From: an uncultured Candidatus Melainabacteria bacterium
GTDB lineage: Bacteria > Cyanobacteriota > Vampirovibrionia > Gastranaerophilales > Gastranaerophilaceae
Length of the DNA: 64,000 nt
Direction: 5' to 3'
NCBI GenBank assembly: GCA_950096985.1
Contig: CATNBA010000004.1
Coordinates: forward strand, 5,618 to 69,617
Positions 30,471 to 59,536 of the stretch are shown in pieces. The position numbers and the translations under genes were made by a program. Every line of letters begins with the position of its first letter. The first letter of the stretch is position 1. A model generated the notes under the pieces. It was given only the letters and a program-made list of their open reading frames with translations, was not told the DNA's origin and did not search any database.

Positions 30471-30584
30471 TTTATTTACCTGTAAAAATATCTAACTAAC
30501 TATAATAATAATACAACTATACTCAGTTGGTGTAAATAAGTTAAATTATGTAAAGAAAAAGTTTTTGATTAAATATTAAAAATA

Positions 30585-30613
30585 TTGCAACTAATTTCAT
30601 TTTGTGTTATTAT
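30585..30613 (+). promoter_or_regulatory. Sigma70-type promoter of the small peptide transcript
   Basis: TTGCAA (30585-30590), 17 nt, TATTAT (30608-30613); predicted start near GGGTAAGC at 30620. Confidence 0.55.
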
Positions 30614-30701
30614 AATTGTGGGTAAGCCCTATTATCATATCCATATCTTAGCGGTACGAACTTGAAATTTGTTAAACGGTAAGAGAAAGGAGGTGATAGA
30701 G

Positions 30702-30773
30702 ATGATTATCGCAGCAAGCGAAAAAGCACTAATTATAATTTTAATAATCATAATAGTGCTTAGTTTCATCTAA
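30702..30773 (+). CDS. Candidate type I toxin: 23 aa hydrophobic peptide MIIAASEKALIIILIIIIVLSFI
   Basis: AGAAAGGAGGTGAT SD, ATG 30702, TAA 30771; paralogous architecture at 59046-59120. Confidence 0.7.
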   Translation: MIIAASEKALIIILIIIIVLSFI

Positions 30774-30813
30774 TTCGGGCTTTTAAAGTGCGGACGGCAA
30801 TCCGCACGCCCAT
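30721..30813 (-). ncRNA. Candidate cis-antisense antitoxin sRNA (about 90 nt)
   Basis: Downstream of the TTGACA-N17-AATAAT promoter; ends in stem AAGCACTA/TAGTGCTT plus T-run; also contains the GTGCGGA/TCCGCAC hairpin. Confidence 0.6.
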
Positions 30814-30819
30814 ATTTAT

Positions 30820-30848
30820 ATTATTTCTGATTTTGCATATTTTGTCAA
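30820..30848 (-). promoter_or_regulatory. Antisense promoter TTGACA-N17-AATAAT
   Basis: Plus-strand TGTCAA 30843-30848 and ATTATT 30820-30825; identical hexamers and spacing at 58959-58987. Confidence 0.65.
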
Positions 30849-30860
30849 GGGGGTGAGGCA

Positions 30861-31091
30861 TCAAAGATTGTCGAAATTACACAATTCTTGAACTGACATG
30901 TCAAAAGCTTTTGCAATGGCTTCCATTGTGTCGAATGATGGTGACTGTTCACCACGCTCAATAGACCCAACTGTTGGACGGCTTATGTCTGCCTTTTCAG
31001 CAAGCTGTTCTTGAGTAAGTTCTCTTTTAACTCTTTCAAGCTTTATTTTTAAGCCTATTTTATTTCGCTTTTTGTCTGATTTATTTATCAT
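30861..31091 (-). CDS. XRE-family HTH transcriptional regulator
   Basis: IKLERVKRELTQEQLAEKADISRPTVGSIERGEQSPS. Confidence 0.9.
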   Translation of the reverse strand: MINKSDKKRNKIGLKIKLERVKRELTQEQLAEKADISRPTVGSIERGEQSPSFDTMEAIAKAFDMSVQELCNFDNL

Positions 31092-31202
31092 AATGTATAT
31101 AATTGTATTCTATTGACAAAATTCAATCTACATGGTAAATTTATCATTAAGATAAATTTAGTATACAATTGTAAAATTAAGGATAGCGGAAAAAATTATT
31201 AA

Positions 31203-31442
31203 TTATTTTCTTTTTGCGACGAGTTCCATTCCGATAACTTCCATTATCTCAAGAACTTCCGCATATCTTATCTTGCCTGTTTTTATCCTGTGGGTAAATG
31301 CTGAAACGCTTTTGCTGCGACCATATTTTTCATGCAACGTAAGTGCCACATCTTTCATAGTTTTACCAGAAAGCACGATGTAACTTTTAATTTCATTTGC
31401 TATTTTTTCTCTTAAATACTCAGGTACTGTAAATTCACCCAT
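31203..31442 (-). CDS. Small Cro/C1-like HTH protein
   Basis: IKSYIVLSGKTMKDVA...SVSAFTHRI...IRYAEVLEI; similar to 59198-59389. Confidence 0.7.
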   Translation of the reverse strand: MGEFTVPEYLREKIANEIKSYIVLSGKTMKDVALTLHEKYGRSKSVSAFTHRIKTGKIRYAEVLEIMEVIGMELVAKRK

Positions 31443-31615
31443 ATTGTCCTCTATATATAAATATTAGAAGTTTTATTTATAGATGTAAATTAAAAAACTT
31501 GATTATTTGGATTATTTATACTAAAATTGTTTCACTGCAATCTAGATTGTTAAGATACAATTGATTATTAATATTTTTCGTTATCCTTTGCTTTACAAAA
31601 GTACAAGGGATAGCT

Positions 31616-32014
31616 ATGACTGATTTAACAAAATGTGTAGATTTATATGATAAAATTCTTGAGGTTGAAGAAAAACGCGATAAAAAATTATATTCTAAAA
31701 ATGTTCTTGTTTACAATTCCCCATTTGTCGACGAACATGAACAGTTCCAAAACTACAGTATGCACGCAATTTATATGGTTGAGAATTCCCGTTCAATAGA
31801 AGAAGGTGTTATTGGTAATGTTATTTCTCCCTGCGAACCTTATTATCTGGTGGAAAATGATATTTTATTAGAGTTTTCTGACAATAAAGTTGATATTTTC
31901 AGAGCTGAAATGCAAGATGGTATTCTTAAATTAGTTCAAAAAGTTAAAAAGGGTGAAGATAACGTATTTTTGGTCTCGTATCTGGCAGCCAAACTCAATA
32001 TTAGAAATTATTAA
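31616..32014 (+). CDS. Hypothetical protein
   Basis: 132 aa ORF with AAGGGA RBS, upstream of grpE. Confidence 0.7.
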   Translation: MTDLTKCVDLYDKILEVEEKRDKKLYSKNVLVYNSPFVDEHEQFQNYSMHAIYMVENSRSIEEGVIGNVISPCEPYYLVENDILLEFSDNKVDIFRAEMQDGILKLVQKVKKGEDNVFLVSYLAAKLNIRNY

Positions 32015-32081
32015 AAAATAATAAATTTTTCTTGTTTATACAGCTTGATAACTTATAATATATTTAAAAGAGGGAAAGAGT

Positions 32082-57300: not shown

Positions 57301-58914
57301 ATGAGCAGCCTACAGTTTCACAATGATTTAGACAGATTAATAAATGTTTTGCCTGACAAGGTCAGAAGGTACATTACCTATGAGAAAATGGAAGATGTTA
57401 TCGAAATTGTTCTCGACATTGGTCGAACCCCTGAAATAAGACACGCAGGCGGTAAAATTGATTATCTGGGTGAAGAGTTTGTTGAAGAAGATGACATTAA
57501 TTATATAACCTGTAGGTTACAGGAATTTACGTCCGATAACCGTTCGGGAATTCCCGGAACATTACACAGGATTAGTGCAATAAGAAACAGGCAGGGTAAA
57601 ATTATCGGTTTAACTTGTAGAATAGGCAGGGTTGTAACAGGAACTATTGCATGTATTAAAGACATCTGTTTGATGAATAAGAGTATTCTCTTTTTGGGAC
57701 GTCCGGGTGTCGGTAAAACAACTAAACTGAGAGAAATTTCGAGATTGGTGGCTGATGAACTTGCCAAGCGCGTCGTTATAGTAGATACTTCAAACGAAAT
57801 TGCAGGCGACGGAGATACTCCTCACCCTGCTATCGGTCATGCAAGGCGTATGCAGGTTACTCAGCCCGAGTTTCAAAAAGATATTATGATTGAGGCTGTT
57901 GAAAATCATACTCCCGAAGTTATTGTTGTGGATGAAATTGGTACGGAAGCTGAGGCTCAAGCTGCGCGTACTATTGCAGAACGCGGGGTTATGTTGATTG
58001 CAACAGCCCATGGTAACAGTTTGGAAAACTTAATCAAAAACCCAACATTGTCAGATTTGGTTGGCGGAATTCAATCTGTTACTTTAGGTGATGATGAGGC
58101 AAAACGCAGAGCATCACAAAAAACAGTTCTCGAAAGAGAAAAACAGCCGACTTTTGATGTTGTAATTGAGATTTTAGACAGAAATACGCTCGCTGTATAC
58201 AAAGATACTGCAGAGGCAGTTGACTATATTTTGCGAGGCTGGCCTATCAGACCTGAAATCAGAAAGGTCGACAAGGCTTATGAAATGCCTCAGGAATTGA
58301 AGGAAGAACCGAAACTTATTGATATTCCAAAAGAAATAGACAAACTTGAACATAAAATTGAATATGGTGCAGACAGTTTGAAGTTTTCATTTTCAAGAGA
58401 AAAGTATGTTGAAGATATGAAAAAGTCTTTTAAAAAGATTTATTTATATGCGGTTTCACGTACGATTGTCGAAAAGGTTATTGAACGTTTGGATTTGAAT
58501 GCGGAAGTTACCAGAAGTATTGAAGATGCTGATATTGTTATCGCTCATAAAAACTTTATAAAAGGCGGGGCAAAAGTTCTGAGCGTCGCCAACGATTATC
58601 GTTTACAGATTTTTTATGTAAAAACAAATTCTATGGCGCAAATCCAGAAGGTTTTGAAAGAAGCTTTAGATATTGTAGAAACCTCGGAAACTTTGTGCGG
58701 CTATTATGATGATGCGGAGCGTGCATTGGATGAGGCGAAAGCTGCGATTAATAAGATATTGGCGGGTGAAAAGGACGTTGAATTAACTCCTCAAAACCAA
58801 CATATCAGGAAATTACAGCATGAACTTGTAGAACAGCATAACTTGGAAAGCAAATCTATTGGTGAAGGCAACAACCGCCACTTAAAAATTGTCGGCGGAA
58901 AAGATTTTCATTGA
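57301..58914 (+). CDS. Ycf45/SpoIIIAA-like AAA ATPase with C-terminal R3H domain
   Basis: GRPGVGKT, IVDTSNEIAGDGD, AVENHTPEVIVVDEIG, ATAHG; C-terminal RKLQHELV R3H. Confidence 0.88.
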   Translation: MSSLQFHNDLDRLINVLPDKVRRYITYEKMEDVIEIVLDIGRTPEIRHAGGKIDYLGEEFVEEDDINYITCRLQEFTSDNRSGIPGTLHRISAIRNRQGKIIGLTCRIGRVVTGTIACIKDICLMNKSILFLGRPGVGKTTKLREISRLVADELAKRVVIVDTSNEIAGDGDTPHPAIGHARRMQVTQPEFQKDIMIEAVENHTPEVIVVDEIGTEAEAQAARTIAERGVMLIATAHGNSLENLIKNPTLSDLVGGIQSVTLGDDEAKRRASQKTVLEREKQPTFDVVIEILDRNTLAVYKDTAEAVDYILRGWPIRPEIRKVDKAYEMPQELKEEPKLIDIPKEIDKLEHKIEYGADSLKFSFSREKYVEDMKKSFKKIYLYAVSRTIVEKVIERLDLNAEVTRSIEDADIVIAHKNFIKGGAKVLSVANDYRLQIFYVKTNSMAQIQKVLKEALDIVETSETLCGYYDDAERALDEAKAAINKILAGEKDVELTPQNQHIRKLQHELVEQHNLESKSIGEGNNRHLKIVGGKDFH

Positions 58915-58958: not shown

Positions 58959-58987
58959 TTGACAAAAAAGAGAAAATCGTAAATAAT
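58959..58987 (+). promoter_or_regulatory. Antisense promoter TTGACA-N17-AATAAT
   Basis: TTGACA 58959-58964, AATAAT 58982-58987. Confidence 0.65.
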
Positions 58988-58993
58988 GTGAAT

Positions 58994-59101
58994 ATAGGGA
59001 AAGAACCCTAAGAGGGTCTAGTCTCTTAAGGTTCTTCATAACTCCCTATTTAAGTAGTTTAGGTGCTATGATTATCATAAAGATAAGCCATAGCGCTTTT
59101 T
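58994..59101 (+). ncRNA. Candidate cis-antisense antitoxin sRNA (about 105 nt)
   Basis: Follows the promoter; long hairpin 58994-59049; ends in GTGCTATG/CATAGCGC stem plus TTTTT (59097-59101). Confidence 0.6.
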
Positions 59102-59120
59102 CTGTAATACAGAATTTCAC
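59046..59120 (-). CDS. Candidate type I toxin: 24 aa peptide MKFCITEKALWLIFMIIIAPKLLK
   Basis: AGAAAGGAGGTGAT SD, GTG 59120, TAG 59046; shares EKAL plus hydrophobic run with 30702-30773. Confidence 0.65.
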   Translation of the reverse strand: MKFCITEKALWLIFMIIIAPKLLK

Positions 59121-59197
59121 TTTTTCATCACCTCCTTTCTGACCAGTTTCTCATAACAAGTGTGTGTCAGCTTTCGGTGAGCGGGAGCTTACCCAAA

Positions 59198-59389
59198 TTA
59201 TTTGCGTTTTTTGAACTCAATATCGTAGCCGAGAATATCGGCTATTTGTTCAACTAATTCATATGTAATTGTTTTATTTCGTAGTTTATTAGATAAATTA
59301 TTTACAGATGAATTTATTTTTTCTGCTAATGCTGTCATTGTAATATTTTCAACTGCTAAAATTGCTTTTATTTTTTCTCTAGCTCCCAT
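59198..59389 (-). CDS. Small Cro/C1-like HTH protein
   Basis: IKAILAVENITMTALAEKINSSVNNLSNKL..ITYELVEQIADILG; similar to 31203-31442. Confidence 0.75.
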   Translation of the reverse strand: MGAREKIKAILAVENITMTALAEKINSSVNNLSNKLRNKTITYELVEQIADILGYDIEFKKRK

Positions 59390-59536
59390 AGTATTACCTT
59401 TGATTTTCACGTTTACATTCATTATTGTATTATTTGATTGAAATGTTGACAAATAAATGTAAGTATGCTATTATTTTGAATGTATTCATTCATAAAAACA
59501 TATATATGTTCAAAAAATATTAAGAAAGGTAAAGCT

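Follow-up and report, generated by a model that had tools for sequence, protein, structure and literature searches.

A candidate lineage-specific type I toxin-antitoxin-like family with a 3'-overlapping antisense RNA in gut Gastranaerophilales

Among described toxin-antitoxin (TA) systems of type I, the closest match in layout to the locus analysed here is provided by the convergent gene pairs TxpA/RatA, BsrG/SR4, BsrE/SR5 and YonT/SR6 of Bacillus subtilis and SprG/SprF of Staphylococcus aureus. In TxpA/RatA and BsrG/SR4, the antisense RNA forms a duplex with the toxin mRNA, which is then cleaved by RNase III. The locus in question, module 1, is a cassette of about 230 bases at positions 30585-30848 of a 64,000-nucleotide stretch (the window) of contig CATNBA010000004.1 from an uncultured Candidatus Melainabacteria bacterium of the gut Gastranaerophilales (assembly of 1.65 Mb, 34% GC, 48 contigs). 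It is probably a copy of a new, lineage-specific type I TA-like family of gut Gastranaerophilales with a 3'-overlapping antisense RNA. As in the TxpA/RatA-type families, the predicted antisense gene lies on the 3' side, overlaps the 3' untranslated region (UTR) and the end of the open reading frame (ORF) (PMC8594479), and has the stronger promoter. However, the TxpA/RatA-type peptides are 30-59 amino acids (aa) long, compared with 23-24 aa here, and neither peptides nor RNAs are similar in sequence. The clamp between the 5' and 3' ends of the mRNA is a feature beyond those families, and the host belongs to a diderm lineage of Cyanobacteriota, in contrast to their Gram-positive hosts. The TxpA/RatA-type families are listed as confined to Gram-positive bacteria, and in T1TAdb, which holds 24 families, the 3'-overlapping layout is listed solely for these, the Gram-negative families being listed as fully overlapped or 5' layouts (PMC8594479).

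The par system of Enterococcus faecalis pAD1 (Fst; RNA I/RNA II) and SprA1/SprA1as likewise have convergent RNAs and a hydrophobic peptide of small size, and they sequester the Shine-Dalgarno (SD) sequence of the toxin mRNA in an upstream helix. In par, however, the RNAs interact through 5' direct repeats that lie beyond the overlap, and the ORF is not covered by the antisense RNA (PMC8594479), whereas here the predicted overlap covers 17 codons. No Pfam match to the Fst family was obtained, and a par-like second site at which the predicted antisense RNA could pair with the mRNA's 5' part was not apparent in 40 copies (RNAduplex, mean z of -0.2 relative to shuffles, no excess complementarity), a weak test in that RNAduplex allows large loops. 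Hok/Sok of plasmid R1 and AapA1/IsoA1 of Helicobacter pylori resemble the locus in their long-range 5'-3' pairing, occluded SD and multiple chromosomal copies, but their antisense RNAs act at the 5' side and trimming of the 3' end frees the SD, whereas here it is the 3' side that carries the antisense gene; the locus matched neither HOK_GEF nor Sok. Ibs/Sib of Escherichia coli is similar in its near-purely hydrophobic peptides of 18-19 aa, its several copies and its cis-antisense RNA, but Sib spans the entire ibs ORF and the predicted antisense RNA here ends inside the ORF. The Rfam model SIB_RNA, whose gathering score is 56, gave only 17.4 bits on 30717-30848 (minus strand; E = 0.41), a chance-level match. 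For the phylum Cyanobacteria, a single candidate type I TA system has been published, MsoT1/MsoA1 of Microcystis aeruginosa, reported in 2025; its antisense RNA, MsoA1, folds into two hairpins and likewise binds the coding region at its 3' end together with the 3' UTR (PMC12390103). MsoT1 differs in having 63 aa and two predicted helices, is unrelated in sequence, and comes from a photosynthetic host outside the Melainabacteria (PMC12390103).

Searches of Pfam, NCBIfam and Rfam with nine peptides and the locus returned nothing above chance: no Pfam or NCBIfam match was obtained at E <= 10, and Rfam gave no match at the gathering score and only chance-level matches at E <= 10. No paper combining type I TA systems with Melainabacteria or Gastranaerophilales was found in the literature. 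Both outcomes agree with the original prediction, made from the letters of the window, that the family matches none of the peptides of Hok/Sok, TxpA/RatA, AapA/IsoA and Fst and is not known to have been described in this lineage. Judged by its layout, the family would work like a 3'-overlapping type I system with an added end clamp of the hok/AapA type, and it is a member of none of the families compared above.

Cassette anatomy and coding signature of the small ORF

The predicted sense (toxin) promoter occupies 30585..30613 on the plus strand (TTGCAA-N17-TATTAT, consensus score 9/12, with TG preceding the -10 box). Transcription is predicted to start at about 30619-30620, with the 5' end GGGTAAGCCC at 30620. 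Among 100 copies, the modal score of the sense promoter was 8/12, below that of the antisense promoters, and the distance from the end of the -10 box to GGGTAAGC was mostly 6-9 nt. The predicted toxin mRNA (30620..30819, plus strand) is about 195-205 nt long and has a multi-branch fold whose closing helix joins the 5' and 3' ends. The 5' arm of this helix, GGGUAAGCCC, lies at 30620..30629 (plus strand); its GGGU pairs with GCCC at 30808-30811, and its AAGCCC pairs with GGGCUU at 30777-30782 (GGGCTT in the DNA of the plus strand). The anti-SD TATCATATCC (= UAUCAUAUCC) follows at 30633..30642 (plus strand), its partner being the segment GGAGGTGATA of the SD, with 9/10 positions paired and one G.U. 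The SD itself, AGAAAGGAGGTGAT (= AGAAAGGAGGUGAU) at 30684..30697 (plus strand), is 14 nt long and is a perfect complement of the 3' end of the 16S rRNA of the same genome. This exact 14-nt word occurs twice in the 64-kb window, both times within such modules, and the degenerate pattern A[AG]G[AG]GGTGAT has 10 matches in the genome, of which five are modules and one is the 16S gene itself.

The small ORF (30702..30773, plus strand) encodes the candidate toxin, a hydrophobic peptide of 23 aa (MIIAASEKALIIILIIIIVLSFI). Inside it lies a 16-bp hairpin (30724..30761), and the five U that follow the stem on the minus strand make this the predicted terminator of the antisense RNA. The element at 30788..30811, GUGCGGACGGCAAUCCGCAC plus GCCC, comprises the 3' hairpin proper (30788-30807) and the GCCC that pairs with the 5' GGGU; it is the sense terminator region and is also predicted to form the 5' domain of the antisense RNA. 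All features listed in the original prediction (promoter, leader, anti-SD, SD, ORF, hairpins, the opposite-strand promoter described below, and the stem of about 16 bp with its T-run) were recovered at the positions given for them. Within the ORF-internal hairpin, a change on both sides between GCG/CGC and GCA/UGC costs an Ala/Val exchange in the peptide.

The coding potential of the ORF was assessed in a set of 100 distinct copies, of which 98 are full length. The original prediction had named a broken peptide frame or a lost SD in homologous loci as evidence that would speak against it; the ORF was intact in 95/98 full-length copies, which encode 81 distinct peptides of 19-27 aa. The start codon was GTG in 44 copies, ATG in 34 and TTG in 17, at a spacing of 7-10 nt from the SD, and the peptide consensus was M-x-F-x-[IV]-[TS]-E-K-A-L-x-L-I-L-L-I-I-x-[AVT]-L-K-x-x. 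Column entropy by codon position was 0.78/0.44/0.95, the excess of position 3 over position 2 having a permutation p of 0.001, and in the hydrophobic core T stood at codon position 2 in 91% of codons, compared with 19-21% at positions 1 and 3. The other sense frames were closed (+1 in 69/69 sequences, +2 in 59/69). Since a three-base period cannot arise from a hairpin, the peptide is under selection to stay hydrophobic; its sequence diverges rapidly and hydrophobicity is kept. The peptides were not found in a collection of 15 billion proteins and are therefore unannotated.

Folding of the mRNA and the antisense gene

The RNA from 30620-30825 was predicted to fold at -61.7 kcal/mol, compared with -39.6 +/- 3.9 kcal/mol for 200 dinucleotide shuffles (z = -5.7, 0/200 as good). 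Its minimum-energy fold contained the anti-SD/SD helix with exactly the pairing first proposed, the 5'-3' closing helix including the proposed pairing of AAGCCC with GGGCTT after the stop codon, the ORF-internal hairpin and the 3' hairpin. The same architecture was obtained for a second locus in the window, module 2 (58959..59194, minus strand), with z = -4.75. Covariation was evaluated in two alignments, A3 (38 copies) and A4 (83 copies), with significance taken from 500 shuffles and slid controls. In A3, 88.5% of cells were paired, and 26 pairs with 188 cells had changed on both sides, compared with 7-11 pairs and 9-39 cells in the slid controls; in A4, 88.9% of cells were paired, and 34 pairs with 438 cells had changed on both sides, compared with 11-17 pairs and 38-85 cells, although related copies and alignments fitted to the structure of the model mean that these counts are not independent events. 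The observed values were equalled by 0/500 shuffles in either alignment. In A4, changes on both sides were found at 6/6 pairs of the anti-SD helix (88.5% of cells paired), at 8/15 pairs of the ORF-internal hairpin and at 7/7 pairs of the 3' hairpin, which occurs in two main sequence types. The closing helix, which in A4 is fixed by the search pattern itself, was paired in 95-100% of copies and is near-invariant within the family; it is compensated in diverged paralogues, as AGCUCCC/GGGAGUU in module 2 and as GUUUCC/GGGAAC in a copy of a diverged type B (L058).

The predicted probability that the SD is unpaired was 0.21 in the full-length mRNA and had the same value in the nascent RNA, when the 5' 11 nt were removed and in each of four molecules truncated at the 3' end; it rose to 0.45 only when the first 30 nt, including the anti-SD, were removed. 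The anti-SD helix, its covariation and the modelled SD accessibility together predict that the toxin mRNA restrains its translation through its own fold. Activation by 3' trimming in the manner of hok/AapA, which was implied by the original prediction, was considered and rejected, because SD accessibility was the same in the four 3' truncations; the SD is predicted to be occluded locally, to the same extent with or without the 3' partner, and that part of the prediction is not supported. Since SD occlusion is independent of the 5'-3' helix, we infer the role of that helix, which more likely shields the RNA ends than acts as a translation gate.

The predicted antisense (antitoxin) promoter lies on the minus strand at 30820..30848 (TTGACA-N17-AATAAT, 30848..30820), scores 11/12 and is the top promoter-like site in the kilobase scanned. 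The predicted antisense RNA runs from 30813..30720 (minus strand) and is about 94 nt long, its start being placed from the position of the -10 box and its end from the hairpin and U5. On the mRNA, its complement takes in the last 17 codons (7-23) and the stop codon, together with GGGCUU and the 3' hairpin. The opposite-strand promoter proved to be conserved: downstream of 96 copies, such a promoter reached 11/12 in 82/96 and at least 10/12 in 90/96, compared with 0.4% and 1.7%, respectively, of random windows of the same genome. In most of the 96 copies it consists of TTGAAA or TTGACA, a spacer of 16-17 nt and TATAAT. The -10 box ends 8-9 nt before the complement of the mRNA terminal GCCC, and the distance to GGGC is fixed across copies. 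The antisense RNA is predicted to fold into a 5' domain (GGGC, hairpin, AAAAGCCC), a linker and the terminator hairpin, and this two-domain fold is conserved; the linker is predicted to be single-stranded, to span 12-20 nt and to be the complement of the mRNA's unpaired region at the stop codon. Two decayed copies (L045 and L081), with an insertion between the SD and the start codon, have kept an 11/12 antisense promoter, and in a third (L104) the SD and the start codon are mutated and the promoter region lies beyond the contig end. A protein encoded on the opposite strand was rejected as a candidate product, the 44-aa minus-strand ORF at 30635-30769 not being conserved and an ORF of at least 40 aa being found in 11/95 copies.

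Proposed mechanism and alternative readings

In the proposed mechanism, a weak promoter of the sigma-70 type would produce an mRNA of about 200 nt, whose ends would be clamped by a 10-bp helix and whose very strong SD would be occluded by the upstream anti-SD. A stronger convergent promoter would produce the antisense transcript of about 94 nt, whose entire length would be complementary to the mRNA from the 3' half of the ORF through the stop codon into the 3' UTR. The 23-aa peptide is presumed to be membrane-active and toxic when made. The clamp would protect both RNA ends and make the toxin mRNA long-lived, and the local anti-SD would keep the primary transcript poorly translatable, also during transcription. 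The antisense RNA would make its first contacts with the unpaired segment at the stop codon and with the complementary loops of the hairpins; pairing would then extend into about 90 bp of duplex, opening the clamp, and RNase III would cut the duplex. Toxin would therefore be made only once the short-lived antisense RNA runs out. An RNase III gene is present in the genome, which fits degradation of the duplex as in TxpA/RatA and BsrG/SR4. Any activation would more likely proceed by 5' processing that removes the anti-SD than by hok-like 3' trimming; 5' processing is what activates tisB, zorO, dinQ and shoB.

A more specific role for the antisense RNA may be considered, although we regard it as doubtful. 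Because it is complementary to the 3' region of the mRNA, the antisense RNA carries the same GGGC...AAGCCC words as the mRNA 5' end. It could displace the mRNA 5' end from the 5'-3' helix and expose to decay both termini of a toxin mRNA that would otherwise be end-protected and long-lived, acting as a clamp opener. If this were true, the antisense RNA would control end protection of the mRNA and not ribosome access, and a hok/AapA-type clamp would be joined with a Bacillus-type 3' antisense RNA, a combination undescribed for any family.

Several observations weigh against a type I TA-like module. The unbroken hydrophobic stretch is just 12-15 residues, which is short for a membrane-spanning helix. 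The pooled ratio of nonsynonymous to synonymous polymorphism (pN/pS = 0.51) falls short of 1 by a moderate margin only, and the codons are under constraint from RNA structure as well. The covariation counts carry the dependence noted above, and the predicted SD occlusion is partial as well as independent of the 5'-3' helix. The 16-bp stem of the antisense terminator is followed by only five U, a toxin-intact copy (L075) carries an element of 95 nt between the antisense promoter and its target, and module 2 lacks about 11 nt between its TTGAGT box and GGGTAAGC and has no recognisable promoter of its own. The shortness of the hydrophobic core would also suit a harmless small membrane protein, such as a regulatory or accessory subunit, whose level is tuned by a cis-antisense RNA with no toxin module involved; the coding signature and the antisense promoter fit that explanation equally well, and the cassette is missing from 8/36 congeneric species. 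It is nevertheless unlikely, given that the cassette is multi-copy, occurs in tandem arrays, at variable sites and inside insertions, combines predicted extreme translational silencing with a perfect 14-nt SD, and has no conserved partner gene (a helix-turn-helix (HTH) homologue within 600 nt in 9/98 modules). The peptides, moreover, diverge fast yet stay hydrophobic. These are traits of type I toxins and not of housekeeping small proteins.

The convergent promoter might alternatively yield no discrete small RNA and drive read-through into whatever follows, which for module 1 is murA, downstream on the minus strand, so that the overlap would be a by-product causing only transcriptional interference. 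The five U of the predicted antisense terminator would suit this, but the promoter, the GGGC distance and the hairpin with its U-run are kept despite differing flanking genes, and a diverged relative (G047) and the type-B copies have six U after the antisense stem; read-through is accordingly rated very unlikely. A non-coding structured repeat, resembling a miniature inverted-repeat transposable element or a small-RNA pair in which the ORF is incidental, would account for a short, repeated and highly structured cassette with covarying hairpins that stands at the exact edge of an insertion. The conservation period of three bases, the 91% T at codon position 2, the single open frame, an SD and start at a spacing of 7-10 nt in 95/98 copies, a frame kept across peptides of 19-27 aa and relatives of 35-41 aa, and the lack of terminal inverted repeats make this explanation extremely improbable. 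The first reading of the locus, a type I TA-like module of an undescribed family, is supported, and the computations by which it could be tested, including the folding of both loci and the covariance-model search described below, all agree.

Copies, insertion sites and significance for the lineage

The genome itself contains five full copies of type A (including modules 1 and 2), one truncated copy and two copies of type B, at least seven of them intact. The further full copies are at C1:1151, C1:93492 and C1:190099 (contig:position), and the truncated copy, at C18:16792, ends after codon 8. The mRNA of module 2 runs from 59194..58988 on the minus strand, with the SD at 59140..59127 and the ORF, which starts with GTG and encodes MKFCITEKALWLIFMIIIAPKLLK, at 59120..59046; its antisense promoter is on the plus strand (TTGACA 58959-58964, AATAAT 58982-58987). 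Module 2 shares the 5' head, SD and antisense promoter with module 1. It follows an HTH_26/HTH_3 gene of 84 aa (within 59195-59452, minus strand) and starts 3 nt past the stop codon of that gene, homologues of which have a module within 600 nt in 6/7 loci; the gene and the module may form a recurrent co-transcribed unit. The two type-B copies, which match more weakly, are at C4:77153-77352 (L058:254-453) and C3:12205-12404 (L059:306-505) and encode MNRELIKKALLVIELLIRLIITLV and MKLRAIKKALLAIELLIRLILVLIN. They have the RNA frame and antisense promoter of type A and peptides with charged residues within the hydrophobic stretch (…KKALLxIELLIRLI…), and their ORF-internal hairpin is terminator-like on both strands.

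A covariance model (R1) was built from the five full copies, on which module 1 scored 180.7 bits and module 2 scored 141.6 bits. The search of related genomes proposed in the original prediction found 1-9 copies in 28/36 congeneric species, and 7/24 genomes belonging to the order's other families gave weaker matches. A sample drawn from the whole class gave matches in 41/251 genomes, all in the same family as the host and spread over nine genera (eight besides that of the host), and tandem arrays of three or four copies occurred. An exact-pattern scan of one genome per species across all bacteria and archaea returned 101 stretches, of which about two would be expected by chance on our own estimate. 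Nearly all carry the label Gastranaerophilales or Melainabacteria (among them MEL.A1 and Clostridium sp. CAG:967) and come from the guts of humans, mice and ruminants. Outside the family, but within the order, longer peptides of 35-41 aa, e.g., MKVAVNKVDWLAIIVILLLLTASKKELVDILTLLLQNK, are encoded in the same RNA frame. Another family of the order has two tandem units about 816 nt apart (L051:1501-1642 and 2317-2459) with only the 3' half of the module, in which the ORF end, 3' hairpin and antisense promoter are kept without SD or start codon, each unit adjoining a duplicated minus-strand gene; these may be orphan antisense genes or decayed cassettes. No match was found in 50,697 GenBank phage records, nor in IMG/VR by two exact patterns, which diverged subfamilies would escape.

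Module 1 is situated between murA and grpE, where the spacer is 1611 nt long (30471-32081) compared with 165 nt in the closest relative, G015 (GrpE 88% identical, MurA 97%). The flanks of the spacer align to G015 at 88% on either side, and 12 nt of that genome's sequence match at the one junction of the additional 1.44 kb as well as at the other. The difference in spacer length and the alignment of the flanks place module 1 at the left edge of a 1.44-kb insertion (30583..32017). The insertion also holds an XRE HTH gene (30861-31091, minus strand; HTH_3 E = 1.5e-17), a second small HTH-like gene (31203-31442, minus strand) and an ORF of 132 aa (31616-32014, plus strand); no integrase was found in it. 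The spacer measures 165-271 nt in four congeneric species and about 930 nt in four others, in which a 0.9-kb insert holds another gene of about 250 aa. This comparison marks the interval between murA and grpE as a hot spot for insertions. The genes that flank the cassette differ from copy to copy, as do their orientations, and the cassette is variably placed. The HTH genes were considered as part of the module and rejected, because homologues of the HTH genes of the window lie within 600 nt of only 9/98 modules elsewhere; they are not a defining part of it.

Three of about 100 modules, all in other species (L081:6948-7240, L045:1076-1366 and L075:1250-1370), are interrupted by a GC-rich element that measures about 95 nt and has inverted ends (GCGGATTTTCGG ... 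CCGAATAATCCG). In two of them it separates the SD from the start codon, and in one it sits within the 3' hairpin. The host genome carries the element at C1:8998-9085 (80% identity). It had no Rfam match and may be a small mobile element or an RNA gene that favours these cassettes. Elsewhere in the window, 57301-58914 encodes a 537-aa protein with Spore_III_AA-like AAA, PTPase-like and R3H domains, which we take to resemble a cyanobacterial Ycf45-type protein, in keeping with the lineage assignment.

Published type I TA systems come almost all from Proteobacteria, Firmicutes and Tenericutes, the first cyanobacterial candidate having appeared only in 2025. If the reading given here is true, the cassettes would constitute a large and well-resolved family from uncultured, non-photosynthetic gut Melainabacteria, in which about 100 diverged copies define the RNA structures by covariation. 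The family would join two designs so far apart, the 5'-3' clamp of Gram-negative systems and the 3'-overlapping antisense RNA of Gram-positive ones. Because the peptides fall below the thresholds of gene callers and are not in the collection of 15 billion proteins, the cassettes are invisible in annotations of common human and animal gut bacteria. As markers of insertion hot spots and small islands, they would aid the reading of genome plasticity in this lineage.

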